Source: a virus. Taken from it: DNA of 64,000 bases. Positions 3,742-41,801 of the stretch are shown here, one piece after another (position 1 is the stretch's first letter; each line of letters begins with the position of its first letter). The position numbers were made by a program, and so were the translations under genes. The notes under the pieces were generated by a model, which made no database searches, had not been told where the DNA came from, and saw nothing but the letters and a program-made list of their open reading frames with translations. The stretch covers positions 1 to 64,000 of the IMG/VR virus record IMGVR_UViG_3300032116_000104; one strand, given 5' to 3'.

Positions 3742-3743
3742 CT

Positions 3744-3873: not shown

Positions 3874-3887
3874 CAAAGCGAGGATAC

Positions 3888-11279: not shown

Positions 11280-11290
11280 ATACACCGCCC

Positions 11291-11330
11291 AAAAGGAAAA
11301 ACCCCACCCTCCGAAGAGAGTGGGGTTTCC
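11291..11330 (-). terminator. Intrinsic terminator after the major capsid gene
   Basis: AAACCCCACTCTC-TTCG-GAGGGTGGGGTTT then TTCCTTTT; cUUCGg tetraloop. Confidence 0.88.
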
Positions 11331-11355
11331 CCTAACTAGATTGGCTAGTTGACTA

Positions 11356-12684
11356 TCAGGCCTCTGGAGCCGCGTCAAACGTCACCTTCACGAAGGCCTC
11401 TGGGCGCTTCACCGCGAGGGCAAGGCGCTGCTCGGCCAGGATGACAATGGCGTTGCGGACGAAGAAGTCCGAGTGCTGCTCTGAGATGCGGATGCTGGCC
11501 TGCTCACGGTCGTAGAGTTGCGCACCCGTACCGAAGGCACCGACGAGAGCGGTACCCTCAGGGATGGCTGGGGTCTCAACGACTGGCAGACGCCAGACTC
11601 GCGGCTCACCACCGAGGGCGACGGATACAGCGACCAGGTACTGGCCCTGTGAGTCCTTCGTCAACTCAATGTCTTCCCAGTCGTTCGGGTGGAGAACCAC
11701 ACCGCTCGGCTCGTAGTAAGCGAGGAAGGACAGCGTTGCCGCACGACGAATCGCATCAGCCTTGGTGTCGGGCACTGGGGTAACAGCGCCAGCCGACCAG
11801 TCATAGGTCTGGATGCCAGAGGTCTCAAGGACGCCAGTGAGGTTCTCACCAGTACCGTCGCCCGACAGAATCTGCGCATCCTCCTGGAGACGGAGGCCGT
11901 ACATGAGTTCGTTGTCAATGATGCTGCGGAGTTGCGGCTCATCGGCAAGCACGTTGCGGTGAGCAGCCTCCCAGTGCGCGATGGTGCGCACTGGAGCCTG
12001 GTGGCCCTCAAAGACCATTGACGACTGCGGCTTGGCAGCGAAGTTTCCACCTGAACGCTCAGCGACGGTCGCCGCGTTGTTGGTGCCACCGCCAGTCGTG
12101 GTGAAACCAAGCATGCGGAAGTACTCAATCACGGCAGCGGTCGTCGTGCGGGTCGGGAAGAGGTCACGGACTCTCTTGACTCGCATCGGCGGCACCACGA
12201 TTGGGTCACGCTGAATGGTACCGAACTCGCCAGGCGTACCCGATGGGAGGGCTGAGAAGACATCCTTCACGCGGTAGGCACCAGCAGTGGTGAGCGAAGC
12301 GCCGACCTGGAAAGGTGAAGGCATGTTCGCGCCATTGCGGCCACCCTGGAGGGACTTGAACTCGGCTGAATCCAGGAAGAGTTGACCGATTGTCTGCTGT
12401 GAGCCGAGGCCCTTCAGCGAGTAACCAGCAGCAGCGGCAGCGGCAACTGAATCGGCAGGAGCAGAGGTGCCCCACTCTTGAACCTGCGTGAAGGCCTCAA
12501 GACCCTCAATGAGGCCCTTGATTTCCTTGATGTCCTGCATGTTCTTGTCAAACGCTGACTTCTGCTCTGCAGAGACGACAACGGTGCCGTCCTGAATCTG
12601 GAATGAGTCTGCAATGGCCTTGTTGTCCGCCATCTTCTGGCGGAGCGCACCCTGCAACTCGTTGAGTCTTGACTTATCTGTCAT
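11356..12684 (-). CDS. Major capsid protein, HK97 fold, with N-terminal scaffolding (delta) domain
   Basis: AAKPQS, TIAHW.....LAD.PQLRS.ID..L.YGL...ED.QIL.GDG.G.NL.G, LHP.DW..I, F.RN....LAE.R.....RP.AF; AGGAG RBS; strong terminator. Confidence 0.96.
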   Translation of the reverse strand: MTDKSRLNELQGALRQKMADNKAIADSFQIQDGTVVVSAEQKSAFDKNMQDIKEIKGLIEGLEAFTQVQEWGTSAPADSVAAAAAAGYSLKGLGSQQTIGQLFLDSAEFKSLQGGRNGANMPSPFQVGASLTTAGAYRVKDVFSALPSGTPGEFGTIQRDPIVVPPMRVKRVRDLFPTRTTTAAVIEYFRMLGFTTTGGGTNNAATVAERSGGNFAAKPQSSMVFEGHQAPVRTIAHWEAAHRNVLADEPQLRSIIDNELMYGLRLQEDAQILSGDGTGENLTGVLETSGIQTYDWSAGAVTPVPDTKADAIRRAATLSFLAYYEPSGVVLHPNDWEDIELTKDSQGQYLVAVSVALGGEPRVWRLPVVETPAIPEGTALVGAFGTGAQLYDREQASIRISEQHSDFFVRNAIVILAEQRLALAVKRPEAFVKVTFDAAPEA

Positions 12685-14593: not shown

Positions 14594-14595
14594 AA

Positions 14596-15004: not shown

Positions 15005-18000
15005 TTAGCCGTAATTTTGGATAATCCACTGACGACGAGCAATGAGTTTACGAATCAATTCGGCCCTCTCATTGGGGTCTGAAATCGCATCAGAAACCAT
15101 TTGTGTAATCATCTGGTCGGTGATTTTCTTCAAGTCGTCAACTTGTTGCTTAATTTCTTGAGGAGTGATATCTCTGAGAATACCCGCGCCTCCTGGGTTG
15201 AAGTTCGGGTCTCTAAGTGTCTCCATCTCCCTGGCTTCATCACCGAACTGGGTTCCCTTGGGGGCGCCCTGGGCCCTGTAGTTCAATGAGCCACCATGGT
15301 CAATTCTAACGGCACGGCCCTGACCGTCGTTCTTGATATTTCCAGAGTTGGCAAAGGCATCCCAGTTGCCGAGCCATGCATCGGCAACATATCCTCTTCT
15401 CATTGCCATTCTTTCACCAAGGGTATTGCCAGACATTGGGCCAGACCCAGGAACCCATTCGGAAACTACCTGTACTTGTCCATTGTCATTGCCAATATCA
15501 ACGCGCGATGCTGGAACATTGAGCGCTCGGTACAGTGCTGATGCAAGAACTTCGTTTTCAACGTGGGACTGAGAGCGTCCCTGCTTTACATAATACTTCT
15601 TGCCATCTGGTGCGGTGTACTGACCGCCAGGATTTGAGCCAAGTTGTCCACCAGTTTTTGTCCATCCAGAAGTATCAATAACTTTTGCGCTTGAACTGCC
15701 TTTGGCGGCCTTGGGGGTCTTGGGGGTCTTTTGCTTCTTCGGTTCCGCTCCGCTGACAATTCCAGCCTGCGCGTCTCTTACGATTCTCTGACCCTGCTCG
15801 TTGGTTAGCGGCTTATTGACGGCAATAATTGCGCCTCTGTTGTGAACAACGAGAGGTCCACCGCTTTCCATATCAATAGCGTCATAGCCTAGAACTGGCG
15901 CCCAATAGTTCATGTCGTGAGCAAACATTTTGCCGACATGCTGCATTGCTACCCAAATATCTTCCGAGTCTTTTCCTGATGACTTCCCGTAATTGTCAAT
16001 TAACTGCCTATAGACCTGCCCAAGCGGCGTGTCCCAATCGGCATCCGTTACCCTGCCCTCAAGGTGTTGGAGCAAGCCAGTAACATAATCTTTCGGGTCT
16101 GTTTTTTCCGCTTCTCCCTCTGGGAATCCAGCATCATAGGCTCTGATGGCATCTTTTATCTTTCGGCCATCTTCAACAATTCTGTCAAGTTCAGACCTCT
16201 TAACGACCCTCGCTGATGGAGAAACGAATGCAAGCATTCTCGCGTCTCCGAAAGAACTGCTCCATGAAAAACTGTCACCCTCAAAAGCCCAGTATTCACC
16301 AATGCCATATGCTGAACCACCCTGTCCAGGAATGAATCTGTCTTCATCGGTGAGATAAGCGTCAACAAATCCAGTGTCATTGCCAACACCCCTGTTGATA
16401 GGTCTCCATCCAGCGGTGACAAGCATTTCAACCTGGTCTTCTCTGATTTGGGTTGGCAGGCCGTTCTGCTCCATGTTTTCCCAAATCAACAAAAGACTTT
16501 CGTTCGTAACCTTGCCAATTCTCTTGGATTCGGTTTTCTCTCCGCGCTTAAACCTAGACAGTTCGCCCTCAATGAACGCCATTCTTGATGTCCACTCGGG
16601 AGTAACCTTGACCTTGAGGTCTGCTGGCTTGTCTCCAGTTACGCTCAAGGGATGCTTCAGTCTTCCTGACTGATTTCTTCCAGCAATCTTTCCTGCTGTT
16701 TCTTGACCCCTGAGTCGTCCAGCAATCTCACGCCTTGCTCTTCTGATGCGGCGAGCAATACCCTTCTTCTCGGCTTCGGCTTGTCCAGCGGTTCGCCCGA
16801 CTCCAGCCTTACGTGCTTTGCGTCTTTCGCGGCGCGCAACTCTCTTTGGATTTGGGTCAAGAAGTCTTCTTGAAAGACCTTCAAGTCTTTCGCTAGTTCT
16901 TTTCTTGACTTTTGCTTTTTCTCCAGTTTCAAGAGTCTCTTCGGCAACATATTTCTTTGCACGCCCACTCTTGCCGTAGTATGTGGAATCAACTCTTCCC
17001 ATTGTTGGGAATGTTCCTTCAATCTTCGTTCCAGAATCCTTGCCCTTTCCAAGCGCAGCCTCTTTGGACGGTGGATGAAGATGCTCAAGCATTTCATGCG
17101 AATCGTTTTTCTGCATGTTCCTGATTGTGCGCAGGTCGTCAAACTGGCGATAAAAAGTTTGGAACGCCTTGTCGTTCTCGGCAAGTTTTTTATCCCTATC
17201 TGGGCCTGGCGCCATATCACTCATTATTCTGGTGATTGAATCGCGTTCCTGTTCCTGAATTTCGGCCTGCAGAACAACCATAAATTCATCGGTAAAGTCG
17301 CTGTCGCGTGAAATGCCTGGGTATTGCTTTTTTGTCTTCGGATTTGTGAGCCAGGCATCCCAAAGACCACTTTTCTTAAAGATGCCTTGCAGTTTCTGCT
17401 TTCTCTTTTCAAGGTTTTGAACTACTGCGCTTCTCTGCTCTTGCGTCATTGATGCCCATGCTGAGCCGTCTTTTGCATCAACTCTGTCAACACCAGCAGT
17501 AGCCCGTGTTTTCTTTTTAGTCTTTGGCGTCTTTGTGCGTGAACGCATTCCAGTCTCAACGGTGCCTCTCTCCATTCTGGAGCGAAGACCAGCGGCTGGG
17601 CGCGTTCCTCTTCTTGGCGCGGCATCAATTTCTTCGGATGCTGCTGGCTTGGTTGTGCTTCTTAGTGAAGTACGCTGCGGCTTTCCACGACCTTCCGCTT
17701 GCTGCATCTGCTGTCTGCGGCTCTGCTCATTCCATGCGCGAGTCGCCGCTCTGGTGTTGACTTTGCCGCCAGTTGACCTGTCATTGACACCTGGAATTGC
17801 TGGACGCTGGAATGGAGTGCTGTCCTGAACGATGCCGTCGCCATCTCCGTCCCAGGCATTGGGGTCAAATCTTGAAGTTATTGCTCTTCCGATTCTGCGG
17901 GCGCTTCTGGTGCCACCGCCGCCTCCGCCGATTGCGCGACCGAGAGCCTTCTCCTCTGTCTTAAAGAAGTCTCCGACCTTTCTGCGCTCACCCTGTTGAA

Positions 18001-18592
18001 CAATTGTCTTGAGAGCCTTTACTCCCAGTCTGCGCTCAAAAGAAGTGCTGACAGCCGACTCAATTCTCTCACGGATGAGCGACTTCTCTTCAATGGAAGG
18101 GCGAGGCATAAACTTGGCGCGGTCAATATCAAATGCGTATCCATTTGACTTTACTTCGCGCATCATTGATGACTTCTGGGCATCAAACCTGAAAGCAAGG
18201 CCCTTATAGTTGACGGCGTTTAGATATTGGGAGTTCTTGAAGTGACGAATGGGTGTGTCAAAGACTGCTGGTGTCTTTGACGCCGACTTAACCCGATTGG
18301 TTCCAGCAAACATGTAGTCTTTCCTGCTGGCTATTGCGACCTTTACGGAGTCAACATCTCCAGAAATCATCCTGTCAAAAATGGCATCTTCCATCTGCTT
18401 GAAGGCGCCAACGATTACCCCAGGCGGCATGTCAATGGCAGAGAGGCTCTTGACGTTCGTTGAGTTGGCCCATGATGCCCAGTTTGTACTATGGGTGTCA
18501 ACCCCATAGAACTCGTATGAAGCAGCACTCTTCACTACAAAGCCAAAATTAACGCCTTGAAGAGCGTCATGAAGAATGGCTACTTTTTTCAT
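15005..18592 (-). CDS. 1195-aa modular protein: leader, DGDGD tag, G[LM]RS sites, ADP-ribosyltransferase-like domain, HipA/PI3K-like kinase domain
   Basis: ART-like: NRGV...G.GG.AYG.GEY.A...LGYDAI...HNR. Kinase-like: GGQLGSNPGG.Y....YYVK...NEVLAS.LY...DAWLGNWD...N...RIDHG. Confidence 0.8.
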   Translation of the reverse strand: MKKVAILHDALQGVNFGFVVKSAASYEFYGVDTHSTNWASWANSTNVKSLSAIDMPPGVIVGAFKQMEDAIFDRMISGDVDSVKVAIASRKDYMFAGTNRVKSASKTPAVFDTPIRHFKNSQYLNAVNYKGLAFRFDAQKSSMMREVKSNGYAFDIDRAKFMPRPSIEEKSLIRERIESAVSTSFERRLGVKALKTIVQQGERRKVGDFFKTEEKALGRAIGGGGGGTRSARRIGRAITSRFDPNAWDGDGDGIVQDSTPFQRPAIPGVNDRSTGGKVNTRAATRAWNEQSRRQQMQQAEGRGKPQRTSLRSTTKPAASEEIDAAPRRGTRPAAGLRSRMERGTVETGMRSRTKTPKTKKKTRATAGVDRVDAKDGSAWASMTQEQRSAVVQNLEKRKQKLQGIFKKSGLWDAWLTNPKTKKQYPGISRDSDFTDEFMVVLQAEIQEQERDSITRIMSDMAPGPDRDKKLAENDKAFQTFYRQFDDLRTIRNMQKNDSHEMLEHLHPPSKEAALGKGKDSGTKIEGTFPTMGRVDSTYYGKSGRAKKYVAEETLETGEKAKVKKRTSERLEGLSRRLLDPNPKRVARRERRKARKAGVGRTAGQAEAEKKGIARRIRRARREIAGRLRGQETAGKIAGRNQSGRLKHPLSVTGDKPADLKVKVTPEWTSRMAFIEGELSRFKRGEKTESKRIGKVTNESLLLIWENMEQNGLPTQIREDQVEMLVTAGWRPINRGVGNDTGFVDAYLTDEDRFIPGQGGSAYGIGEYWAFEGDSFSWSSSFGDARMLAFVSPSARVVKRSELDRIVEDGRKIKDAIRAYDAGFPEGEAEKTDPKDYVTGLLQHLEGRVTDADWDTPLGQVYRQLIDNYGKSSGKDSEDIWVAMQHVGKMFAHDMNYWAPVLGYDAIDMESGGPLVVHNRGAIIAVNKPLTNEQGQRIVRDAQAGIVSGAEPKKQKTPKTPKAAKGSSSAKVIDTSGWTKTGGQLGSNPGGQYTAPDGKKYYVKQGRSQSHVENEVLASALYRALNVPASRVDIGNDNGQVQVVSEWVPGSGPMSGNTLGERMAMRRGYVADAWLGNWDAFANSGNIKNDGQGRAVRIDHGGSLNYRAQGAPKGTQFGDEAREMETLRDPNFNPGGAGILRDITPQEIKQQVDDLKKITDQMITQMVSDAISDPNERAELIRKLIARRQWIIQNYG

Positions 18593-21621: not shown

Positions 21622-23267
21622 TTCTTCTTGTCCTTCTCTTTGAGGAACTTCTTGACAGCGTCTGGCAGTGCGGCATCTACTTCCTCAATTGCCTTTTGAG
21701 ACACAATGCGGTCACCAGACTCCAGAAGTTTGGTAGTCATGTCCTGAAAGGAATAAGGGTCAAAGATGTCAACGCCTTCTGAGTTGACAAATCTAATTTC
21801 AGAAATGTTGAGCGGACTCAACTCAACCTTCACTTTGTCTGCCGCTTTCTGCTGGAGATAGATGGTGACTGCTGGGAGATTAAGCCCGCCCCCGATTGGG
21901 CCGCCGCCCTGCATGAATAGAACAGCATCCTCGTCGCTCAATTTCATCTTCTTTAGTTTCAATGCTATGACATCTTTGCCAACAACTGGGTCGCGAGGGG
22001 GAACCTCTACCGAATTTATGTCCAGCATTGACAGTGGGTAGTGGATGACCTCAACCTCGCTCTTGTTGATTCCACCGAGAATGTAGGCCTTGAATCCAGG
22101 ACTATTGGCATGTCCAATGAGTTGCGAATAATCGCCAGTAATGGCTGCCTCAATGTAAATCTCCAGAAGTTCAAGGTTCCTGGCTTCGCTATTACGGGAG
22201 TTGATGTTCCCCAGAACAGCAAGGGCAATGTTCTCAGAATCCTCTGACATGGTTGAAACGGAGTAGGCGTTATCAAATATGCCAGTGTTTCTTGAGTATC
22301 CCGTGCGTCCAAAAACCTCTGGTTTGAGCAGGATGTGAATCTTGTCGTTCATTGAGAAGAACTCGGACTTGTAGTTCTTCTTCTTGTTATTGGGCTCGGC
22401 GGACTTGAATCCAGAGTGGTGCATCCACCCAGAGATGGGGCGAGCCTCGTCTCCCGTCTTTCTGCTGATTCCCAAAGTTAGGTCAGCATCTCTCTGGATG
22501 TCCGCTTGTGAGCCAGACGACCTATCTCTTACTATTTTCTTTCTCTCGGCTAGAAGAAATAGTGTCTCCACAGACGCATCAACAGAGACAAATCTCTCAA
22601 ACCCAGCATGCAATCTGAAAGCCAATTTCTCTAGAATCTCTATAATCTCTTCGTTGGTCTTTTTTTCCACCGCTTTCTTCAGGTATTTAGATACCTCAAC
22701 ATCGTTTTCCCTGACAGATACGGACGGCATTCGGATATCGTCTAGAATCTTCATTACAGTGTCGGTGAAGTCGTCGTAAGCGTCGTCAATATCCGTCGCA
22801 TAGTTGGTGCCGTACATCTCATCCAACTTTGAGATGTCATTCATCATGGACTTAGATGCACTGAAGTGGTCAAATGGCTTGCCGCCAGCAGCCTTAATCT
22901 CCCTGATAACAGACTCATTGCGGCGAGAAATTTCTAGGGCATTGCTTGACTTCTTGGTTGACTTGCCGCGACGCTGTTTCTCCTCTTGACGCACATCTCT
23001 AATGGCATCAATAAGCAAGCCAGCCTCTCTCCGCTCATCGCCAGTCATTGTTGCCGAGGCTTTTTGGGCACGTCGCTCCATGTCGGACATGACCTTATCC
23101 AGGCCGTCTTGCTCAATAACTTCAAGAACCATGGTGCCATCTGGGTCAGGCTGACCCACCCTCAGTTTGGCTGGAGGTAGGACAACATCCTCTTTCTGAC
23201 GGTCTTTGTTGGACTTGAATATTCCCTTGGACCCAGCAGGAAGTTTTACACGAACTTTCTTGCTCAT
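21618..23267 (-). CDS. 549-aa head-region protein, possible degenerate DUF3626/ART-like fold
   Basis: R.AD..LG......ARPISG and FKAYILGGI...EVEVI loosely echo RP.YG and YIEAQIHG of DUF3626. Confidence 0.7.
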   Translation of the reverse strand: MSKKVRVKLPAGSKGIFKSNKDRQKEDVVLPPAKLRVGQPDPDGTMVLEVIEQDGLDKVMSDMERRAQKASATMTGDERREAGLLIDAIRDVRQEEKQRRGKSTKKSSNALEISRRNESVIREIKAAGGKPFDHFSASKSMMNDISKLDEMYGTNYATDIDDAYDDFTDTVMKILDDIRMPSVSVRENDVEVSKYLKKAVEKKTNEEIIEILEKLAFRLHAGFERFVSVDASVETLFLLAERKKIVRDRSSGSQADIQRDADLTLGISRKTGDEARPISGWMHHSGFKSAEPNNKKKNYKSEFFSMNDKIHILLKPEVFGRTGYSRNTGIFDNAYSVSTMSEDSENIALAVLGNINSRNSEARNLELLEIYIEAAITGDYSQLIGHANSPGFKAYILGGINKSEVEVIHYPLSMLDINSVEVPPRDPVVGKDVIALKLKKMKLSDEDAVLFMQGGGPIGGGLNLPAVTIYLQQKAADKVKVELSPLNISEIRFVNSEGVDIFDPYSFQDMTTKLLESGDRIVSQKAIEEVDAALPDAVKKFLKEKDKKK

Positions 23268-30725: not shown

Positions 30726-33700
30726 TTAGAGGTCTTGAATCTCAACTTCTCTTCCGCGCTGATTGCGTCGGTTGACCGTTCTGGAACTCAACTCCTCAAC
30801 CGTTCTGTCAATGAATGTAGCCATGGCTGCTTTAGCGAGCATGTCAAGCATGGTTGCAAACTTCTGCTGACGCTCGTTGCCTCCGATGGCACCTTGACGG
30901 TCAATGACCACCATCATGGCGTCAAGGATTTCATCAACTTCATCTCTGGTCATCAGGATGCGCCCAGCGTTGGTTCTTCTGCTGCCCAACTTGGCTGCCT
31001 CTTGACGACTGATGAGGTCTTGAAGCGCCTTGAGGGCGTCTGATGTTCTCTTGTCCTGAGCCTTGTCTGCCTCACGGATTTCCTTCGGCAGTGAGTCAAG
31101 AATATCTTTGAAGAAAGTGGCTTCTGCCTTGATTTCCGTGCGGCCCTGCTTGGAGTCGGTTGACGACCTCAGGCCTCTCGTGTTCCGCGAGCGGGCGGCC
31201 ACATAATCCCTAACTTCCTGGGACACCACCCTGTTGGCATTGACTGGGACACTTGAGCGGAGACCCTCACCCATGCGTCGGGTAATGACTTCTCCTGCTG
31301 CTGGCTCCGCGTCTGGAGTTGGGACATTGTCGTCAATGTCCAGTGGGCGGCCCTCAACTCTCCTGACAACACCGCCAGTATCGTCAAACGCATCGTCTGA
31401 AATGTCGGCAATGTCGGCAGCAGCGCGACCCCTTCTCGGTGCAACCTCTATCTCTGGTCCATCCTTAATGAACTTGTCATTCTTGTAATAAGTGTCCAGT
31501 CCGTTAAGGGTTCTCAAGAGTGTTTCTGCTCGCTGAATAATCTTCTCTGCTGGACCATCGGTATCGTCGGCTTCCTCGGCGTCAGCGAGGTAGTTCTTAA
31601 CTCTCTGGATGGCAGCCTTGATTTGGTTCCTGCTCAGGTCTTCGCTGTCCATAATGTCAGCGATTTCATCCCAGGCCTCAGCATGGAGTTCATCAATTCT
31701 GCCCCTGTCTGAAAGTCTTGAAGCGTCGTTGACGGTCTTGTCAAGGAAGTTGTTGATTCTTCTTGAGTCGTCTCTACGCTCCGTGGTTGCGTCTTCGTCA
31801 TTTGCAGGACGAGGCTTGACGGCAACTTCTTTTGGCCCCTGTTGTGGCTGGCGTTGTGTCGGCTGCACTGGGCCCCTCTCGGCACGACGAGCCCCACGCT
31901 CTGCCCTTCTTTCGTCAGAAGCCTCTCTATCAAGCACTTCCTTCATAACGCGCTCATAGTCAACTTTGCGCATTCCACTTCTCTCTGGAGAGTGGTCTGC
32001 CATCCAGTTGAACTGTTGTTCTGCCGTCATGCCATCCCAGTTATCTGGCTTCATGCTCTGGAATGTCTTGCCCTTGCTGTCTTCCTTGGCCCTAGAGCCC
32101 ATCGGGCGTCCTTTGCTGCCACTGCGACCAGTATCACCGAGTCCTGTTACGCGGATTCCACCTCCGCCAGTATCGTCATCGCTGGTTGATGAACGCATGC
32201 CACGACCACTTGACTTCTTGGGATTGGCATCGCCAGTAATATTGCTGTACAGGGTATCAAGGGCCTTCCAGTCCTTCGCAAGAAGCGTTCCGTCCCCACG
32301 CCTGTTGTACTCCTCTCGGATTCTCATTGAGACGCCGAGGCTTCCACCCCTTGCGCTGTTCATGAAGAACACGAGTTTCTTCTGGCGGGCCTCATCAATG
32401 TCCGCAGGAGCGCCATTGTTATTATTTGAACGAAGGCCTAGGTTGCCGCGCTTGCCAGCCTGCTGGTCTTCCCAGTTGAGGCTCACATACTTTCCGCCCT
32501 CTGATTCGGCGGCCTGGTCAATTACGCCCTGAATGTCGGAGGTAACAACTGTTCTGCCGTCTCGGCGTGGCTCTTTTGCCGACTCAATGGCGTCTTCAAT
32601 CTGCTCAACCTCGTCTGGGGTGAGGTCAACTTTGCCATTCCTTGCGTTTTTAAGTTTCTCGTCAAGAGCATCAAGCGCTGCACCATTGGCAGAAAAACGC
32701 TTGAGCATTGGAATCTCGTCGCGAAGTTGTGCAATCTCATCGTCGCTGAGCGTCATTGATAGATTGTTTGCAACTCTTCTTGTTGAAGAACGCATTCCCT
32801 CATCTGAATCGGTCCGTGACTGTTGTGCCGCCTCGCGACGACGCATTGCACGCAGTTCCGCCTTGCGAACATCTTCACGACGCATTCCGAGAGACTCGGC
32901 CACTTCCTGGAGTGATTCACCTGCCTCGCGGCGTCTCAGAATTCGGTTTTCCGTTTTTTCTCTTTTTGCCCTTTCAAGACCTTCCTTGACGGTGGGTCTT
33001 GGTTTCCTGGCGGCGCGCGCAGTTGTGACCGCCCTGTCTTTCCCAGTCCAGTCCTTGAAAATCCTTGCCCTGGTCGCAAAATCACCTATTCCTTTATCGT
33101 CCCATGCATCAAAAACTCTTTCAGTTATTCCATCACCCCATGGGCCCATCATTTCCCTAACAGACGGGTTCTGCACTGGGAAGTCATCATCTATGCCCAG
33201 AGCGCTGGCAATTTGCTCGGCAACGATTTCCCCAAAACCGTTCAATACATCAACGAATGCCGATTCTTCTCCTTCGTCCCCAAATAGTCCATCAGACATG
33301 AGCCTGACCGCATCCTCTGCGAGAGAATCCATGCGAGAACGCATATTTTCTCTGGTAAATGGGGTGTTGGCAGCCGCATCAAAGAGTTCTTCAGTCCTGC
33401 TCCGAGACGACTCATCCAGGTCACGAATCATTGACCTTCCTGACTCCCTTTTACGCACATCAGACACTCTGTCTTTTCTGTCACGAGTTGACGACATCAG
33501 ACCTCTAATGCGTGCCTTTTGCTTATCGTTTGGATTTGGACGAATGGGCAATTTTTCAATATTGCGCTCCATGCGGTCACGCCAGTCATCCAGAAGTTCA
33601 ATTATCTCATCTTTGCTGAAAGAGTCCCAGTTTCGCAGCCACTCTCCCGTTGGGTCATCTGGGTCAGGGAGATACTCATTATCTGGGATGTTCGCTGCCT

Positions 33701-36700
33701 TGACTCTTTCCTCAAGAAGGTCACGAGCAAGGTAGGCAATATCAGTGACAGCCGTTCTATCTCCGCCACCTCCAGTGTTTCTGACACCATTTGCGGCTAT
33801 GTCAATTATTGACTGACGGATACGATTTAGTTCATCGCCAATGTTTTCTGGAGTTATGTCAGTGAGAACTATTGATTCAAAAAGTTCCATCGCTCTGTCT
33901 GCTGTGGCGGCATCCCATCCACCGCCCTGCTGCCCAGGCTGCATGAACCCCCTGATGTCACGCAACTCTTTTGACGCATCAAGTCTTGCCTGACGCGCCT
34001 GTTGTGCTGCCGCAGATGCGCGCCCTGCCTCTACGTCCCTCATATTGACGACTTCTACATCGCCAGTGCTGGAACGGACTCCTGTAGTTGGAAATTTGTT
34101 ATTTAACCCATTGGTCAGGGTATTGATTTCGTCTTCTGAGAATCCAAGTTCTCTGAGTTTGCCAACAATGTCTGACTCAATTTTCTGACGCGCCTCGCGA
34201 GACTCCGTTGGGTCAATCTTGCCCTTTTCATCACGCTTGACCATTCCAGAGCCGCGCTTACCGAGGTTCTCGGTCGTGGAGCGCATTCCACTACGGCGAC
34301 GCGCTGGGTTCAGGTTCTCAAGTTCTTCTTTAGAAACACCTTCAACAATGACCCTTCTTGCGGTCTTGGCGACTTCAAGTTGTCTGGCGAGCCTGGCTTC
34401 GTCTGGGCTTGGCTTGGCTCTCTCCATGTTCATATCGTCAACAGCAAGTTTGAGAACTCTATTCATGTCCTCAAAGTTGGTAGTCCCATTCTTCATGTCA
34501 CGAATGAGGCCATCAACCCAATCCTTGTCAAGGCCGCCCCTTGCCGAGTAGGCGGTTGGATAGTCTTCTAGTGACTCTTCAATATCTCTCAGAAACTCTG
34601 AAATTCTTCTGCCGCGACGGTCGGTAATTGACAGCGGTGAGTCCATTGAAGAACTCCTGAGACCACGAGCACGATTCATGCGTGGGTCTCCTCTGGTCTC
34701 TGCAATCTCCCATGCACGGAGGTCTTCCGCTCTGACGCCAAGGATTCCAGCAAGTTCACGAACTGGCGTTCCTTCAAAGCGCTTACGCAAGATGAATTCA
34801 GCAAGAGCCCTATCGGTGTCCTGGAATCGCGGCTCCTGACCTGGCTCCCCTCGTTGCGCAAGTTGTGCTGGTGTTCGTGCTGGGATGAGGTCTTTCGCCC
34901 TCTTCTTAATTTCCTGAATTTCTAGTTTCCGCACTTCTTCGCGCGACATACCATACTCTTCAGCAACATCATCAAGTACTTTGCCAGCAAGACGAGCATC
35001 AACAATCGCCCTGTCTCTGTCAATCTCAACCTGCATATCGTCCAGCAGCGCATCAACATCGTCTCTATCGGTTGAGGAACGAAGGCCTCTTCTTGAGCCA
35101 CCCGCATCTATGGAATCAGCAAGTTGCTGAATATCCTCAAACGGACCACCACGGTCTCTTCCGTATGCAGAGAGAGTGGCTATTAAAGCCAGTCTTGCGT
35201 TGTTCTTATCGTCCTCGCTAAGAGGAGACTTTGGCCTTCTTCTGCTCGGAAAGAATTTTGTAAAATCATCTCTGTCGCCGTCAGACAGTTTTATATATTG
35301 GTCTTTAAGTGTTGAAATAAGGTCGCTTAGTTCTTCTGCGCCAGGAAATTCGTCTGGAATGTCGCCTTGCATTACTGATGCAACTGTCCAGTCTGAACCA
35401 GGCTGCGGGGGAAAGTAATCGCCCTGTTCGCTAGGCATAAACCGCGAAAGAACCTCCCCGAGGTTTTCAAGGAGAATTTCATCTACATCATCCATTGATG
35501 TATCACCGTCATTGCCAAGACTTGCGTCAAGCGCCTCTATTGCTCGCTGAAGTGCTTTTGTCTGCTCATCTATGGTCATTTCCGCAAAGCGGTCTCCCAT
35601 TGCGTCAATAATTTCTCTTTGCTCTACGCTATTGGCCTTTGCCGTTCTTGAGCGAAGCCCATCAGGGCGACCCTTGGAGTCTCCAGCACTTTGCATGCTA
35701 CGCACCATGTTACGAAGCGCATCAGAGTTTTGCTTATCCGTACTACGAACTCGCTTGTTATTTACTGAGTCAAGAACTGTGCCGAGGGCAAGAAGAGACG
35801 CAATTTGGTCGTCTTCTGACACTGCTCTCTTCCCTCTGGTTTTATACATGTCACCAAAGCGACCCTTGCCGCCAAGTTTTTCATAGGCATCCTGGACTTC
35901 ACTCAGAAGGTCACTGACGCTCTCTTTGTCAACGCTCTCTGAACCATCAAGAATTTTGGATGCTGAGTAATCACCCGATGGCGCTTCCACGGATAGAAAA
36001 TCACTCATTAGTTCAGACAGGTATTCTCTGTAGAAATCAATTTCATCGTCACCAGTGGCATCAAACAATTCCAACTGGTCTTTAACGATATTTCTAAAAG
36101 CCTCTTTTCTTTCAGATGGAGACATTTTTGCCATTGATTCAATTGCTGTTCCAGAACGCAGTCCACCATCACGACGGTTCTTGGCCTCAAGTTCGGCTTG
36201 TCGCACATCCTCGCGACGCATGTTGAGCGACTGAGCAACATCCTGTAGTGACTCCCCAGCCTCGCGGCGCTTGAGAATCTCATCGTTTGTCTTGCGCTTT
36301 GCATCGCGCTGGCGGATTGCCCGAAGTTCAGCCTTTCGCACGTCTTCGCGGCGCATGCCAAGGGACTCGGCTACGTCCTGCAAGGACTCTCCAGCCTCAC
36401 GGCGCTTCAAGATGGAGGCGTCGTCGTTGCTGTCTTTTCCACCAGATGAACGGAGACCACGACCAGTGTTGATGCCCTGCCCCTGGGCGGCCTGAATTGC
36501 CGCCTGAGTATTTACGCGACCACGCGTTGACCTGTCGTTGACGCCTGGAATCGCAGGTCTTTGGAACGGTGTCCCTTCTTGAACGATGCCATCGCCGTCA
36601 CCGTCCCAAGCGTTGGGGTCAAATCTAGCGGTTAGGCCTCTTGCGAGGCGGCGTCCTTTTCCCCCTCCGCCACCACCAATCGCTCGCCCGATGCGATTGC

Positions 36701-38015
36701 CAAGCCCCTTCTTTAGAGTTTCAACTGCATCAATGAACTCGGGAGTGACACCAGAGGTAATCACGATTCCCTTTTCAGAGACATATGAATCTACGCGGTG
36801 GTAATCCATGATTGGGTCAAGGAGTTGCTTCGTGTGGAAAGCATTATTGATGTCAACTGGGATGACATACTCTGCTGACTTCACTTCAACTTCCTTCTCT
36901 GCCGAAGCAAGGACATCTTGGAGCATTTCCATGACATTCTTCAGTTTTGCAAGGTTGCGCTTGTTGAGCGAGCGGCCAATCTTCTCCTCAATGTCATCAA
37001 GGAAGAAGTCGTCAAAGTCCAAGTCGTCGGACTTTCCTGGCATTGGCATGAAGTCGTCTGGGTCATCCCCAAGATAGGCGTCCCCCTGCGGCTTCATTGA
37101 CACAGCAAAAGCCTGTGCTGGAGATGACGGTATGGCGGGAATCTCTGGCGTGTAGACAGTCTGACTCTGGACGCGCTCAGGCTTGCCAAACATGAATTGA
37201 CCATCCTGGAAGTGGAATGCCACTCTGTATGTTGACGACTCACCGTCGCTTGTCAGTCTGTCAAAAACAACAGTGTTCTCTGTTGCGGCCCTCACGATGA
37301 CGTTGGAGCCAGACCGCTTGACAAGTTCCCTTCTGAGGGCAACCATCAGCGGGTTCTCTGGGGCAGATGGACGAACTGGGCGAACGGCCTGCTGTGGCTT
37401 CGGCGCCATTGGCTTCATCATTCCAGACGGCATTCCAGGGCTGTGCGGCATGCCTGGCATGCCCATCATTCCGTGACCCTTCTCCTCATCCGCCAGAGTA
37501 GTATCTGACTTAACCGAAATCGTGCCAGTCAGTTGGTTGGCTCCATGAAGAACTGGGGAAACCTCGTAAAGTTCCACCTCTCTGAGGATGTTGGCCTGAA
37601 GATTAGGGTCAAAAGACGCCTGAATGGTCTTGTAGCCAATTGACCACTCCTGCTCCTCACCAAAGAAGGCAACATTGGCGAAAGCCTCACGGCCCTTCTC
37701 TGAATTGAGGTTGAACTGAACGCGAGCGTAAAGACCGCCGATTCCAGCAGCCTTCATCTTTCCTGGCAGTCTTGAGTCGGTTGGGGGAACTTCGTAAATC
37801 TCCAAAACCTTGCCGATGGGGTCATTCCAGTTGTGTCCCCAGACGACTCTTGGCTTGCGTCGCTTCAGACTTGAGTTAAAAGCACCTGGGAGAAGAACAT
37901 CACCGACGCTGTCCTTGTTTCCGACGCCAGCAACGAAGCACTCAACGATGCCCTGAGCCTGGTCAACATTGAATGTTCCAGAACTCGCTTTGAACTCAAT
38001 ATCAGAAAAAGACAT
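30726..38015 (-). CDS. Prohead (HK97-type, S78) protease fused to a ~2250-aa modular polyprotein
   Basis: N-terminal ~170 aa: G.VE.FV...GNKDS.GD...PGAF..SL......W.HNW..PIG...WSIGY...LYEVSPVL.GAN. Lies between portal and capsid genes. Confidence 0.92.
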   Translation of the reverse strand: MSFSDIEFKASSGTFNVDQAQGIVECFVAGVGNKDSVGDVLLPGAFNSSLKRRKPRVVWGHNWNDPIGKVLEIYEVPPTDSRLPGKMKAAGIGGLYARVQFNLNSEKGREAFANVAFFGEEQEWSIGYKTIQASFDPNLQANILREVELYEVSPVLHGANQLTGTISVKSDTTLADEEKGHGMMGMPGMPHSPGMPSGMMKPMAPKPQQAVRPVRPSAPENPLMVALRRELVKRSGSNVIVRAATENTVVFDRLTSDGESSTYRVAFHFQDGQFMFGKPERVQSQTVYTPEIPAIPSSPAQAFAVSMKPQGDAYLGDDPDDFMPMPGKSDDLDFDDFFLDDIEEKIGRSLNKRNLAKLKNVMEMLQDVLASAEKEVEVKSAEYVIPVDINNAFHTKQLLDPIMDYHRVDSYVSEKGIVITSGVTPEFIDAVETLKKGLGNRIGRAIGGGGGGKGRRLARGLTARFDPNAWDGDGDGIVQEGTPFQRPAIPGVNDRSTRGRVNTQAAIQAAQGQGINTGRGLRSSGGKDSNDDASILKRREAGESLQDVAESLGMRREDVRKAELRAIRQRDAKRKTNDEILKRREAGESLQDVAQSLNMRREDVRQAELEAKNRRDGGLRSGTAIESMAKMSPSERKEAFRNIVKDQLELFDATGDDEIDFYREYLSELMSDFLSVEAPSGDYSASKILDGSESVDKESVSDLLSEVQDAYEKLGGKGRFGDMYKTRGKRAVSEDDQIASLLALGTVLDSVNNKRVRSTDKQNSDALRNMVRSMQSAGDSKGRPDGLRSRTAKANSVEQREIIDAMGDRFAEMTIDEQTKALQRAIEALDASLGNDGDTSMDDVDEILLENLGEVLSRFMPSEQGDYFPPQPGSDWTVASVMQGDIPDEFPGAEELSDLISTLKDQYIKLSDGDRDDFTKFFPSRRRPKSPLSEDDKNNARLALIATLSAYGRDRGGPFEDIQQLADSIDAGGSRRGLRSSTDRDDVDALLDDMQVEIDRDRAIVDARLAGKVLDDVAEEYGMSREEVRKLEIQEIKKRAKDLIPARTPAQLAQRGEPGQEPRFQDTDRALAEFILRKRFEGTPVRELAGILGVRAEDLRAWEIAETRGDPRMNRARGLRSSSMDSPLSITDRRGRRISEFLRDIEESLEDYPTAYSARGGLDKDWVDGLIRDMKNGTTNFEDMNRVLKLAVDDMNMERAKPSPDEARLARQLEVAKTARRVIVEGVSKEELENLNPARRRSGMRSTTENLGKRGSGMVKRDEKGKIDPTESREARQKIESDIVGKLRELGFSEDEINTLTNGLNNKFPTTGVRSSTGDVEVVNMRDVEAGRASAAAQQARQARLDASKELRDIRGFMQPGQQGGGWDAATADRAMELFESIVLTDITPENIGDELNRIRQSIIDIAANGVRNTGGGGDRTAVTDIAYLARDLLEERVKAANIPDNEYLPDPDDPTGEWLRNWDSFSKDEIIELLDDWRDRMERNIEKLPIRPNPNDKQKARIRGLMSSTRDRKDRVSDVRKRESGRSMIRDLDESSRSRTEELFDAAANTPFTRENMRSRMDSLAEDAVRLMSDGLFGDEGEESAFVDVLNGFGEIVAEQIASALGIDDDFPVQNPSVREMMGPWGDGITERVFDAWDDKGIGDFATRARIFKDWTGKDRAVTTARAARKPRPTVKEGLERAKREKTENRILRRREAGESLQEVAESLGMRREDVRKAELRAMRRREAAQQSRTDSDEGMRSSTRRVANNLSMTLSDDEIAQLRDEIPMLKRFSANGAALDALDEKLKNARNGKVDLTPDEVEQIEDAIESAKEPRRDGRTVVTSDIQGVIDQAAESEGGKYVSLNWEDQQAGKRGNLGLRSNNNNGAPADIDEARQKKLVFFMNSARGGSLGVSMRIREEYNRRGDGTLLAKDWKALDTLYSNITGDANPKKSSGRGMRSSTSDDDTGGGGIRVTGLGDTGRSGSKGRPMGSRAKEDSKGKTFQSMKPDNWDGMTAEQQFNWMADHSPERSGMRKVDYERVMKEVLDREASDERRAERGARRAERGPVQPTQRQPQQGPKEVAVKPRPANDEDATTERRDDSRRINNFLDKTVNDASRLSDRGRIDELHAEAWDEIADIMDSEDLSRNQIKAAIQRVKNYLADAEEADDTDGPAEKIIQRAETLLRTLNGLDTYYKNDKFIKDGPEIEVAPRRGRAAADIADISDDAFDDTGGVVRRVEGRPLDIDDNVPTPDAEPAAGEVITRRMGEGLRSSVPVNANRVVSQEVRDYVAARSRNTRGLRSSTDSKQGRTEIKAEATFFKDILDSLPKEIREADKAQDKRTSDALKALQDLISRQEAAKLGSRRTNAGRILMTRDEVDEILDAMMVVIDRQGAIGGNERQQKFATMLDMLAKAAMATFIDRTVEELSSRTVNRRNQRGREVEIQDL

Positions 38016-38105: not shown

Positions 38106-40202
38106 TTACTGAAATGACCCTTGGACGCCAGCGTTCCACGCACGACGGGCTTCCTGTTCAGCGATTTCTGGCCTCTTCTTGCCCAAGAGGTTAGTGAACG
38201 TAGAGACGATTGAACTCCTGAAAAGCGTGCTTCGGATGTCCTCATCTGGGGCGTTGAGGGAAGTGAACATTGACGCACTCAGTTCACCAAATGTCTCGTC
38301 ATTCACTAGATTGATGCGCTCAATCTGGGAATTCACATGAGCGATGGCATCCTCTCGGGTGAATGGGGCAATCGGTAGACGCTTCTCCGCATAGGTTTCG
38401 CGGGCATCATTCATGATGGAAGTCAGGACTGGCCTGATGTCTTCCTCAATCTGTCTAGTCCATGTCTCCCTGTTGAAGATGGAGTCAATTTCCAAGGATG
38501 CCGTGGCGAGTTGCTTCTTCGCCTTGGCTCCGCTGGCCTTTTCCAGAACGACCCTCTGTTGCCTCTCAAAGATTCTCTCTAGGCTTCTGTCAAGAATCTG
38601 GGTCCATCTAGTGAGGGCAATATTGGACGCTTGGTCCAATTCTTGGTCCACCTTGGTTTGAATTGGCGAGTTAGCCAACGCCGACATTTGTTGTGGTGCT
38701 GGTGGCTCTTCTGTGGTGGCCATTTCGGGTGGAGCATCGTTTGGCCCCATTGGTGCTGGCGGCTCCGCTGCTTGGGCAGCAATTTGCATGGCGCCCTGCA
38801 TGGTCGTTGCATCTGGCGGTCCTTCTGGGGCGGCGTCAGTTGGCGGCATTCCTGGCATTCCTGGCATTCCTGGAGCACCTGGGGCACCTGGCATCCCTGG
38901 CATCCCTGGCATCCCTGGCATTCCTGGAGCACCTGGCATCTGTGCCTGCGGACCCTCTTCCATCTTCTTCTTGGTATTGGCGATGGGGGTGAGATTCGGG
39001 TTCATGAGAAGCGAGTCAGCAAGGTCGCTCTGAACATCCTTGCGTCCAGAATTAATTCTGTACTCGTTGGTACTGATGAGTCCATTCTGGAACTCATCCA
39101 TGAGGTAGCGCTGGCGCTCCTGCTCGTACAGAATCAGGACTGGAACATCCGATGTATCAAAGTCAATGTAATTGTTTTCATCAAGTTCGTCAAGGGCGCG
39201 ACCGAGAATTTCCAGATGCGGAAGCATTGTTTCGTTCCAGAAGACTCTGTGCTCCTCTGCGGCGTTGCTGAATGTCCTGCCCGCAGCGTTGCCAATGACC
39301 GACTCTGGCACTCCGAATGAAGCAAGAATCTCCTCTTTTGTGATTTGCCTCATCTGCATGTAGGCCGCATCACGGGGAGACGCAGATGTGTCAACATAAT
39401 CAACACCTTCGTCCGAAGAAATAACCGTTGTCTGACCCGTTCTGCTCAGGTTTCCACGGAAACGATTCTTGATTTCCTCTTTGTCGTCCTCGTCAATTTC
39501 CCCCCTGAGGACGATTAGTCCACCAGGACGACCGTCATTCAGCAAGTAGTTTCTGTTATAGACCTTTGCAAGATTCTCAATCTCTACGGCGACACCAGCG
39601 GACTCAAGAGGCGTCATTGAGAGGTACGGGTCAAGCGGGTGTGGCTTGCGAATCCAGACCACATCATCTGGCTTCATGATGATTGTTCTGCCGTCTGGCA
39701 TGATGACCTCATAGCCAGCGACAAAGTTCTTTGGGTCTGGAATTGGCGCGGTGGACTGCGGTGGCAAAAGGTTCAGGGCGATAACGGTTCCGTCTCTGGA
39801 ACGAATCTTCTCAATGAACGCACCTCTGGTGCTCATGAGAATCTGTGAGGAAAGCCTGTATCGGAAGATGAAGGAGTTCTCTCCTATGTTCGCTTTGGTA
39901 TTGAAGATTTTCAACAGGGGGCTGTCCTTAGCCGCCTTGCCGCCAAGAATCTGCCCGTCAGGTGAGTTATCCTTGCGAAGAATGACTGGAAGCCTTGCCT
40001 GGTTTCCAGCGATGGCATCAATGCATCGCGACACCCAAGTGACCTTCTGCATGCCCTCGCGATAAACGCGCTCAATGTCCCATGAGTCCTTGTAGCCACG
40101 GCCTGCATAGGCGGGGTTCATTGCGATGGGGGCGCCAGGACCTATTGCCGCCTTGGAAGAACCTGAGTTCAGTGACTTATTTTGATAACTATTCCAGGCC
40201 AT
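38106..40202 (-). CDS. Portal protein (HK97-like) with MPG low-complexity linker and MuF-like C-terminal extension
   Basis: V.RCID.IA...A.LP, G.A.I, P.DP..S..PL, N.GRPGG, I...FGVP...G; C-terminal RI..VNDET...IAEQE.RRAWNAG. Confidence 0.93.
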   Translation of the reverse strand: MAWNSYQNKSLNSGSSKAAIGPGAPIAMNPAYAGRGYKDSWDIERVYREGMQKVTWVSRCIDAIAGNQARLPVILRKDNSPDGQILGGKAAKDSPLLKIFNTKANIGENSFIFRYRLSSQILMSTRGAFIEKIRSRDGTVIALNLLPPQSTAPIPDPKNFVAGYEVIMPDGRTIIMKPDDVVWIRKPHPLDPYLSMTPLESAGVAVEIENLAKVYNRNYLLNDGRPGGLIVLRGEIDEDDKEEIKNRFRGNLSRTGQTTVISSDEGVDYVDTSASPRDAAYMQMRQITKEEILASFGVPESVIGNAAGRTFSNAAEEHRVFWNETMLPHLEILGRALDELDENNYIDFDTSDVPVLILYEQERQRYLMDEFQNGLISTNEYRINSGRKDVQSDLADSLLMNPNLTPIANTKKKMEEGPQAQMPGAPGMPGMPGMPGMPGAPGAPGMPGMPGMPPTDAAPEGPPDATTMQGAMQIAAQAAEPPAPMGPNDAPPEMATTEEPPAPQQMSALANSPIQTKVDQELDQASNIALTRWTQILDRSLERIFERQQRVVLEKASGAKAKKQLATASLEIDSIFNRETWTRQIEEDIRPVLTSIMNDARETYAEKRLPIAPFTREDAIAHVNSQIERINLVNDETFGELSASMFTSLNAPDEDIRSTLFRSSIVSTFTNLLGKKRPEIAEQEARRAWNAGVQGSFQ
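38845..38939 (-). repeat. 9-bp tandem repeat encoding (MPG/APG)n inside the portal gene
   Basis: CCTGGCAT(T/C) units on the + strand. Confidence 0.85.
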
Positions 40203-40445: not shown

Positions 40446-40493
40446 ATGAACAACATTACCTTATACGACGAACGGCTGTCGGAGGGCATATTT

Positions 40494-41801
40494 ATGTCAA
40501 CAGATTGGAACAAAGTTTTAGAGTATCTTCAGCCGAAGATGCCTGGGTTTTGTCCAGAACAGCCATCCATAACCCAGAAGGTATTTCTAAGAACCTATGC
40601 CATTGAGGCGCTGTTCGGGGGAGCGGCTGGTGGAGGCAAGTCATCCGCTCTTCTGATGTCAGCATTGCAGTATGTGGATATTCCTGGCTATTCAGCCATT
40701 CTTTTCCGCCGCACCTTCGCTGACTTGTCGCTCCCAGGAGCACTCATGGACCGCTTCAAGTCATGGATTGACAATTACGACGACGTTCATTGGAACGCCA
40801 ACTCCTATGTTGCGACTTTCCCATCTGGGGCCAGAATCTCCTTCGGATACCTGAACAACACGAACGACTACCTCCGATACAAGGGTTCTGAGTTCCAGTT
40901 CATCGGCATGGATGAGGTCACTGAAATTCGTGAATCTGACTATAGGTACCTGTTCTCCCGACTGCGTCGCCCTGCTACTGGACCACTTTCCAAGGTTCCC
41001 CTCCGAATGAGGGCCGCATCCAACCCAGCACCCAACTGGGTGAGACAAAGATTTATTGTTGAGGGCATTGATAATGGCAGAATTTTCGTGCCCTCCAAAC
41101 TGACCGACAACCCTGGAATTGATGCCACCTCGTACCGTCAAGCCCTTTCTGCCCTTGACCCTATTGAGAGAAGAAGGCTGGAGGAGGGCGACTGGTTTGC
41201 CACCACCCTAGGGACGCTCTTTGACAGAACATCGGCAATCATCATTGACCACTCAGAAATACCTCAGGTCCAGTCATCGGCTCGTGTTGTCCGTTTCTGG
41301 GACTTGGCGGCTACAGAGCCAAGTTATTCAAACCCCAATCCAGACTGGACTGTCGGTACATTGATGATGTTTGACCAAGGAATCGCCTACGTTTTGGATG
41401 TCAAGAAAGCCAGAGTGCGCGGCGAGAAGGTTGAGCAGTTGATTGCCCAAACCGCCTATGAGGACGGACATGCTGTCCCCATCAGAATGGAGCAAGAACC
41501 TGGTTCTTCTGGAAAAGCCCTAGTTGACCAATACGCAAGATATGTGCTTCCTGGATACGATTTTCAGGGCATTCGCTCTACTGGGGACAAGGTCACAAGG
41601 GCTAGACCATTTTCTGCCGCGTTTGCTAATGGCAATGTCAGGGTCGCAAGGGGGGCATGGCTGACTGATTGGCTTGATGAATTTTCGTCATTTCCTGAGG
41701 CCTGTGACCACGACGACCAAGTGGACTCCGCCGTAGGAGCATTCACATATTTGGCTGGACTTGGGTTGCCACAGAGACGAGCAATCAGTATCATCGTCTA
41801 G
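40494..41801 (+). CDS. terL: Terminase large subunit
   Basis: Walker A GGAAGGGKS, Walker B IGMDE, ASNP; nuclease motifs WDLA...PDWT and HDDQVD; GGAGG RBS. Confidence 0.95.
   Translation: MSTDWNKVLEYLQPKMPGFCPEQPSITQKVFLRTYAIEALFGGAAGGGKSSALLMSALQYVDIPGYSAILFRRTFADLSLPGALMDRFKSWIDNYDDVHWNANSYVATFPSGARISFGYLNNTNDYLRYKGSEFQFIGMDEVTEIRESDYRYLFSRLRRPATGPLSKVPLRMRAASNPAPNWVRQRFIVEGIDNGRIFVPSKLTDNPGIDATSYRQALSALDPIERRRLEEGDWFATTLGTLFDRTSAIIIDHSEIPQVQSSARVVRFWDLAATEPSYSNPNPDWTVGTLMMFDQGIAYVLDVKKARVRGEKVEQLIAQTAYEDGHAVPIRMEQEPGSSGKALVDQYARYVLPGYDFQGIRSTGDKVTRARPFSAAFANGNVRVARGAWLTDWLDEFSSFPEACDHDDQVDSAVGAFTYLAGLGLPQRRAISIIV

Follow-up and report, generated by a model that had tools for sequence, protein, structure and literature searches.

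A probable protease-headed polyprotein of an uncultivated tailed phage, with cassette borders at a repeated tetrapeptide motif

We analysed a 64,000-nucleotide stretch of viral DNA (the window), which comprises positions 1 to 64,000 of the 84,372-base IMG/VR virus record IMGVR_UViG_3300032116_000104. An uninterrupted open reading frame (ORF) of this window, P0001, encodes in order a prohead protease, a conserved leader, a series of variable cassettes and a conserved C-terminal part (approximately residues 1940–2429), with thirteen copies of the short motif G[LMV][RM]S. P0001 is probably a prohead-protease-headed polyprotein of an uncultivated tailed phage that is cut at motif-bearing linkers and evolves as motif-to-motif cassettes. 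The placement of cassette borders at the motif is well supported by sequence comparison with relatives. The original prediction, made from the sequence alone, held that the segments between motifs are themselves units of duplication; a few appear to be, and duplication is a minor mode of growth for the array.

The motif and the borders of cassettes

The thirteen sites begin at residues 520, 618, 786, 977, 1118, 1243, 1312, 1505, 1740, 1860, 1939, 2251 and 2281, where 0.29 sites are expected and the maximum in 2000 shuffles was three. All thirteen were correctly placed in the original prediction, and the range that it gave for the duplicated segments is also accurate, with 36164 as the first base of motif 2 and 32787 as the last base of motif 9; segment 13 (30729–31175) falls outside that range. 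Codon usage for Gly, Leu, Arg and Ser varies freely from one site to another, and the constraint is therefore at the level of the peptide, not of the DNA sequence. The idea that the motif marks a recombination signal in the DNA was rejected on the same grounds.

An AlphaFold model of residues 1740–2429 (from an alignment of eleven sequences; mean predicted local distance difference test score, pLDDT, 67.6) contains four confident helical domains. Motifs 9 to 13 all fall between confident domains, in coil runs of at least eight residues, and such runs hold just 36 per cent of the modelled residues (P ∼ 0.006, or ∼0.017 without the terminal motif). Each cassette is probably a small, mostly helical domain, joined to its neighbours by a flexible linker bearing G-[L/M/V]-[R/M]-S.

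Relatives were collected from IMG/VR. The search confirmed 305 stretches, and the eighty of these that were kept yielded sixty-seven distinct proteins, of which twenty-nine are full-length (thirty with the window's own). The N-terminal 480–530 or so residues are conserved (47–61 per cent identity), as is the C-terminal part from about residue 1940 in most of the proteins, and the middle is not. The thirty full-length distinct proteins carry between one and sixteen sites and measure 1019 to 3846 residues, with open-ended frames reaching 3857, and site number rises with length (Spearman 0.89, n = 30 proteins that are phylogenetically non-independent). Each lineage has its own, internally uniform version of the motif: GLRS, GLAS, GFAS, GFSS, GMAS or R[LF]SSG. 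Five long relatives that were checked have nine to seventeen sites, compared to 1.2–2.1 expected from shuffles. In every relative seen, the fusion of the S78 protease to the motif array is retained.

Comparing the number and order of modules among related phages had been suggested as a check, and both vary. Besides the range of site numbers given above, a module resembling segment 6 stands before the helix-turn-helix (HTH) module in relative L001 and before a module resembling segment 5 in L005, each the reverse of the window's order. (Segments are numbered by the motif that opens them.) Single-linkage clustering of cassettes chained unrelated segments together where relatives lacked a cut site, and was used for counts and order, not for families.

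The ends of local matches to these relatives cluster at the motif. Among eighty-eight unique internal ends of BLASTP matches between P0001 and the sixty-seven relatives, fifty-seven lie no more than 20 residues from a motif, where 19.4 are expected; none of 5000 randomisations reached fifty-seven, although the ends are not independent, many being jittered copies of one breakpoint, and the P value is indicative only.

One relative, L003, carries a recent, non-adjacent duplication that is informative about the unit itself. Two adjacent copies cannot fix the phase of a duplicated unit, because any unit containing one motif will look as though it ran from motif to motif. In L003 the copies run from residues 732 and 1092 onward at about 91 per cent identity; the identity begins at G-G-[R/G]-R-L-S-S and ends right after the next V-G-R-L-S. 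In the forty residues before and after there are two and five chance identities, and nucleotide identity falls from 19–30 to 5–11 matches per 30-nucleotide block. Since homology switches on and off at motifs, both ends of the duplicated unit are fixed there. A second relative, L046, has a duplication of 23 residues that ends at a motif.

Three long strain-level relatives of P0001 (P0006, P0007, P0008) fall in its 90 per cent identity cluster. P0006 differs at 13 of 2206 positions, of which ten lie within segment 9 (residues 1751–1855; P = 6e-11). The thirty-six differences of P0007 comprise twenty-five in residues 1646–1698, ten in segment 9 and one in segment 10. P0008 is identical to P0001 over residues 1–1284, then has three differences just before motif 7 and 52 in the 193 residues of segment 7 (27 per cent diverged), so that segment 7 holds 52 of its 55 differences before residue 1505. 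This pattern suggests that recombination swaps cassettes with edges that are mostly, not always, at motifs. The frame of P0008, which comes from an NCBI source, ends eight residues past an F-M-S-A-T version of motif 8; the gene may be split there, at the border of a cassette, or a frameshift may account for the stop.

Cassettes move between genes too. The C-terminal domain encoded by the neighbouring ORF at 15005..18592 recurs as a motif-flanked cassette in the polyproteins of L007 and L009 (36–37 per cent identity; E-values 2e-29 and 2e-31). A kinase-like cassette is found both in relatives and in genes neighbouring P0001.

An internal segment pair at E < 1e-3 occurs in only four of the seventeen proteins of at least 1500 residues: the window's own, L003, L025 and L046. 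Given how rare such pairs are, the array appears to grow mainly through the gain of unrelated cassettes, with duplication as an occasional route.

The nearest isolates are Brevibacterium phage Cantare and Gordonia phages such as GMA6 and DalanDe, at 40–49 per cent identity in portal, protease and capsid. A further family member, L090 (JASLZV010000001.1, 28,559 bases), has a 2698-residue open frame with eight G[LF][ARS]S sites. Its contig is binned into a marine Phycisphaerae metagenome-assembled genome from the Eastern Tropical North Pacific, which is a weak hint on habitat or host.

Internal duplications of P0001

To compare segments with each other, P0001 was cut at its thirteen motifs and all sixty-six pairs of segments of at least 20 residues were aligned by Smith–Waterman. 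The motif (first seven residues) and the last four residues of the segments were stripped to keep the shared motif from inflating the scores, and each of the three proposed pairs was set against 2000 global shuffles, 2000 local-block shuffles and the reversed sequence. The median score over the sixty-six pairs was 35.

Segments 2 and 3 gave the clearest result, with a score of 105 that none of the shuffles of either kind reached (maxima 67 and 70; reversed, 41). Keeping the motif gives 51 identical columns in 174, in an alignment that opens with the first residue of each segment and spans 138 and 170 residues. The optimal alignment pairs the same blocks that the original prediction had aligned by eye, in register from the motif, and its claim of homology for this pair holds. 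The two segments are an old adjacent duplication, with a unit of about 170–190 residues including one motif. Both are present and unchanged in all three strain-level relatives, so the duplication is fixed at the strain level.

Segments 7 and 8, the second pair proposed, scored 84, again above every shuffle (maxima 75 and 65; reversed, 41). The homology stands, and its description as a repeat of whole segments in register does not: the match is partial and weak (22 of 110 columns identical), and it begins 57 and 30 residues past the respective motifs. The remainder of segment 8 consists of a variable linker and an HTH unit unrelated to the match with segment 7.

For segments 9 and 13 the proposed similarity is not significant at the sequence level. 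The score of 49 was reached by 34 of 2000 global and 35 of 2000 local-block shuffles (maxima 71 and 62; reversed, 35), and the resulting p of about 0.017 fails correction for sixty-six pairs. Profile–profile comparison with hhalign, using twelve and twenty distinct homologues, gave a probability of 38 per cent and an E-value of 3.3e-4, the best of fifteen pairs, and paired the same blocks as had been named. Both segments are also ordered strand-helix-helix-strand-helix-helix in the AlphaFold model. Homology between them is plausible and unproven.

A smaller repeat lies within the segments. P0001 has five sigma-70 region-4-like HTH units of about 45 residues: segments 1 and 4 hold two each, and the fifth ends segment 8. 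The segment 8 copy has 72–79 per cent amino acid identity to related units. Across all sixty-six comparisons, homologous pairs at the level of the cassette are 2/3, 7/8 and 1/4; the remaining significant pairs, 1/8 and 4/8, rest on the HTH unit. The peptide E-G-L-E-R (residues 1678–1682), before the segment 8 HTH unit, has a spacing that fits a decayed motif and is not kept in P0007; that it is one is speculation.

Searches aimed at the duplicated cassettes returned little. A single-sequence AlphaFold model of segments 2 and 3 together was unusable (mean pLDDT 41.3), and comparison of these two segments with the ESM Atlas gave no usable match. Pattern scans of IMG/VR returned no relatives for residues 618–976 and 1312–1739. 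A word-index search of 5.8 billion proteins with residues 618–976 (lengths 1335–4251) matched only P0001 itself, and phmmer with residues 618–1739 against 1.84 billion representatives gave three weak matches, all in residues 1027–1314; segments 2, 3 and 7 and the opening part of segment 8 had no match. The coordinates of the segments and of the other features discussed here are given in Table 1.

Table 1. Features of P0001 and of the surrounding genes, in window coordinates.
Feature	Position	Strand	Basis or remarks
P0001 polyprotein ORF, 2429 aa	30726..38015	minus	uninterrupted; 305 IMG/VR stretches hold long homologous frames
Peptidase_S78 prohead protease domain, aa 4–179	37479..38006	minus	Pfam and PHROGs
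Conserved region, aa 180–519	36459..37478	minus	47–61% identity across relatives
Segment 1, aa 520–617: two sigma-70 region-4-like HTH units	36165..36458	minus	alignment and Pfam
Segment 2, aa 618–785: first adjacent duplicate	35661..36164	minus	alignment
Segment 3, aa 786–976: second adjacent duplicate	35088..35660	minus	alignment
Segment 4, aa 977–1117: two diverged HTH units	34665..35087	minus	aligns with segment 1 from the motif onward
Part of segment 7 homologous to segment 8, aa 1368–1477	33585..33914	minus	alignment
Part of segment 8 homologous to segment 7, aa 1534–1640	33096..33416	minus	alignment
HTH unit at the end of segment 8	32833..32942	minus	DNA repeat of 36169–36278 and 36304–36413, 71–75% nucleotide identity
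Segment 9, aa 1740–1859: conserved module, possible remote relative of segment 13	32439..32798	minus	profiles, model
Segment 13, aa 2281–2429: C-terminal domain	30729..31175	minus	kept in 27 of 30 full-length distinct proteins, window's included
Portal gene	38106..40202	minus (same as P0001)	Phage_portal, E 1e-49
Large terminase	40446..41801	opposite the P0001 ORF	
HK97-fold capsid gene	11356..12684	minus (same as P0001)	42% identity to HK97 gp5
596-aa protein	12848–14638	minus	Zeta_toxin / AAA_33 kinase-like domain, aa 372–509, E 3e-13
1195-aa protein: leader, then motif	15005..18592	minus	C-terminal ∼225 aa (15005–15680) without Pfam or PHROG family
1945-aa protein: five GLRS-type sites, H-E-F-G-H zincin-like motif, repeated S-D-P-F-(A/G)-(D/N)-P-F stretches	23267–29104	minus	

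Processing, head genes and alternative readings

The N-terminal domain of P0001 belongs to the S78 family of prohead proteases. It matches PF04586 at residues 19–166 with 45.2 bits (Pfam cut-off 21) and phrog_80 with an E-value of 4.5e-29. H61 aligns with the His of F-N-H and S125 with the Ser of M-S-V-G-F in HK97 gp4, which we take to be the catalytic pair of that enzyme. The gene lies between the portal gene, which it immediately follows, and the HK97-fold capsid gene. The gap of about 18 kb from protease to capsid gene, filled by several very large ORFs, is an unusual spacing. Pfam matches in P0001 are of S78 and HTH type only; the conflict-type effector domains (ADP-ribosyltransferases, nucleases, methylases and others) were not found. 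Besides the S78 domain and the five HTH units, its distinct domains include at least four helical ones that the model shows with confidence.

We propose that the conserved ends of P0001 would carry the whole chain into the procapsid, where the fused S78 protease would cut in the motif-bearing linkers and release about fourteen pieces that remain in the head or exit with the DNA. Segment 13 may be the capsid-binding or scaffold end. Because each piece would be freed, a motif-flanked cassette could be added, removed, exchanged or duplicated and its neighbours would be unaffected, and the motif-to-motif cassette would behave as an evolutionary unit. In P0001, duplication gave rise to the adjacent segments 2 and 3, to the partial match between the cores of 7 and 8 and to the five HTH copies; most other cassettes are mutually unrelated and were probably acquired, not duplicated.

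Cleavage at the motif is inferred from this arrangement and from better-known systems. The HK97 protease cuts gp5 at K103/S104 (PMC10275583), and the cut precedes S-L-G-S, which has the same small-L-x-S shape as the motif. In SPN3US, gp245 acts at fourteen sites that are spread over nine head proteins and marked by a short motif (PMC10052503).

Other large ORFs in the head-gene block also carry the motif, at five, two and one sites. P0001 shares a leader with two of these proteins (36459–36900, 15005–18592 and 12848–14638, all on the minus strand), at 60–86 per cent identity. In P0001 it makes up the final 140 or so residues of the conserved region that follows the protease (residues ∼380–520). 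The leader contains an acidic, calcium-loop-like stretch, F-D-P-N/K-A-x-D-G-D-G-D-G-I-V/L-Q-[ED], shortly before the first motif of each protein, and may be a common targeting or propeptide element. In the 596-residue protein the kinase-like domain comes right after a single G-L-R-S-S site at residue 329, and by its layout the protein looks like a packaged enzyme that the same cut would free. A Y-Y-V-K...D-x-G-G pattern in the C-terminus of the 1195-residue protein also looks kinase-like. The 1945-residue protein has no Pfam or PHROG family match. Past the capsid gene, at 10746–11378 and 9552–10256 (both minus), lie genes for an Asp/Asn beta-hydroxylase-like protein (PF05118, E-value 1e-15) and a DUF6321 protein, which are odd neighbours for a capsid gene.

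A broader reading, which we hold tentatively and consider doubtful as a whole, is that the array serves as a plug-in cargo system. The gene would open with the prohead protease and close with a capsid-binding domain, and whatever coding piece came to lie between two motifs of the lineage's own version would enter the procapsid, be released there by cutting and travel out with the DNA. Cassettes, DNA-binding and kinase-like ones among them, would pass as motif-to-motif units from this gene to other head genes and to other phages, and the motif letters (GLRS, GLAS, GFAS, GFSS, GMAS, RLSSG) would drift with the protease of each lineage.

Several observations weigh against a motif-cut polyprotein that evolves as motif-to-motif cassettes. 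A tape-measure-like ORF on the other strand bears motif sites, where the action of a head protease is unexpected. The major capsid protein has no strict motif; its K-G-L-G-S (residues 91–95) lies outside the region alignable to HK97 gp5, and in four other lineages no change at this junction accompanies the change of motif variant. Nor is any column of the protease fixed per motif class under an 85 per cent rule. Residue 120 of the protease (window 37640–37660, minus strand), five before the aligned Ser, is Glu in the lineages with an Arg-containing motif (GLRS, R[LF]SSG) and Gln or His in the GLAS, GFAS, GFSS and GMAS lineages. E120 may be a specificity contact, and the pattern also fits a simple split into two clades and is confounded by phylogeny. 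On the evolutionary side, internal duplication is uncommon in long family members; the 7/8 match is out of register with the motifs; the variable block at residues 1646–1698 does not lie at a motif; the HTH units are duplicated within segments, so that the motif-bounded segment is not the sole unit; and segments 2 and 3 show no copy-number variation among strains.

These points limit what the original prediction had drawn from the duplications. Its view that the motif delimits evolutionary modules is borne out by the clustering of breakpoints, by L003 and by the strain differences, and is weakened by the smaller HTH unit, by the 9/13 pair, which was not significant, and by the edges of the 7/8 match, which lie off the motifs. 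Its argument that duplication independently supports a functional boundary holds better for the boundary than for the function: any linker would be a preferred breakpoint, so duplication backs the former more than the latter. The accordion-like array that it suggested is right in that cassette number and order vary. A tandem-repeat array has mutually homologous units whose copy number varies among close relatives; here the number varies through unrelated cassettes, and segments 2 and 3 do not change in number.

It is unlikely that the motif only marks flexible linkers between domains, with breakpoints falling there because any such linker tolerates indels and recombination. Duplication and shuffling would then carry no information on a function of the motif itself, and the chain might remain whole, like beads on a string. 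All five modelled motifs are indeed in long coil runs, linkers free of the motif exist (positions 309–327 of the model, and the variable block just mentioned), and the limits of the homology between segments 7 and 8 are those of domains and not motifs. A linker needs no fixed tetrapeptide, however, and P0001 has many times the expected number of sites, with residues kept while synonymous codons vary. Every lineage moreover has a uniform version of the motif, and the duplication in L003 includes a motif at both ends and its homology stops there.

A somewhat poorer prospect is that the motif is cut by another enzyme, either the HEFGH zincin-like domain of the 1945-residue neighbour or a host protease, and that the S78 domain processes the capsid protein only. 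Among the processing domains that have been proposed for polyvalent proteins of phages, zincin peptidases are the most frequent (PMC5512222), and the neighbour does have the HEFGH sequence. The protease domain's failure to co-vary with motif variants and the presence of the motif in a tail-gene product would also be accommodated. Against this, small-L-x-S, the shape of the motif, also follows the scissile bond at the one HK97 cut site compared (PMC10275583), and the 1945-residue protein matches no Pfam or PHROGs family. The S78 domain, in turn, stays fused to the array throughout the relatives.

Encapsulin cargo-loading peptides offer a comparison for a third possibility, that the motif is a docking peptide tying the chain to the inner capsid surface at many points and not a cleavage site. 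The HK97 fold of the capsid protein (with its resemblance to gp5) and the shortness, repetition and flexible setting of the motif would suit it. We consider it very improbable, since a docking peptide is expected to stay constant with its pocket, and the capsid protein is 84–89 per cent identical among lineages whose motifs differ (GLRS, GLAS, GFSS, GFAS, GMAS). That the similarities reflect chance or composition with no duplication at all is hardly credible: it fits segments 9 and 13 at the sequence level and might draw on the mere 20 per cent identity of 7 and 8, and for 2/3 and 7/8 it is ruled out by the shuffles, all of which these pairs exceed, as they do the reversed controls and the median pair.

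Relation to known systems

HK97-like phages include fusions of protease and scaffold, such as P2 gpO and lambda C/Nu3, whose S78-type protease, at the N-terminus, leads into a helical or acidic part. Like P0001, these proteins and the protease of Brevibacterium phage Cantare are encoded between portal and capsid genes; they are about 300–450 residues long and are not known to carry a repeated motif. The Cantare protease, at 417 residues, was checked and has none, whereas the shortest members of the family described here have 1019–1065 residues.

In the head processing of T4, SPN3US and phiKZ, a single protease likewise acts on many head proteins, at sites with a short motif (PMC10052503, PMC5694885), and the long N-terminal propeptides of its substrates resemble the leader-then-motif arrangement of the three proteins here (PMC10052503). 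Those substrates are separate products, mostly cut once for removal of a propeptide, and the protease is of a different family (PMC10052503, PMC5694885). P0001, in contrast, has its thirteen sites (sixteen to seventeen in relatives) in a single chain of which the protease is itself a part.

The polyvalent proteins of phages and conjugative elements are also giant, multidomain and encoded next to head genes; an embedded peptidase is proposed to release domains, domain shuffling is extensive, and a role in packaging and delivery is proposed (PMC5512222). P0001 resembles them in having many distinct domains including a peptidase. Assemblin-like peptidases are described as rare in polyvalent proteins and always C-terminal (PMC5512222), whereas the peptidase of P0001 is N-terminal (residues 4–179 of 2429). 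No reiterated short motif between domains is described in the parts of the account compared (PMC5512222), and P0001 has one. Most cassettes of P0001 have no detectable family, and Pfam found in it none of the known conflict-type effector domains of polyvalent proteins.

Two further comparisons concern reiterated sites. Eukaryotic RNA virus polyproteins are, like P0001, single chains with such sites, and are cut at them into functional units. Nematode polyprotein allergens consist of tandem duplicate units between cleavage sites (PMC3079579). Neither group shares ancestry with P0001, and the units of P0001 are mostly unrelated with few duplicates. Searches of full-text articles, which did not extend to the supplementary domain-architecture files of PMC5512222, turned up no account of a polyprotein that begins with a protease and carries a reiterated motif.

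The duplicated cassettes are modest findings on their own; what they add is an independent, evolutionary line of evidence for the motif as a real module border. If motif-flanked cassettes are indeed cut out and packaged, a single tailed-phage gene would load a changing set of proteins into the head. Cutting and packaging would then explain why the gene evolves by whole cassettes; its products range from 1019 to more than 3800 residues among relatives, and near-identical strains differ by single cassettes. Such an array would be a natural design for capsid-borne protein delivery, and the motif would offer a simple way to predict the mature head proteins of phages known from metagenomes.

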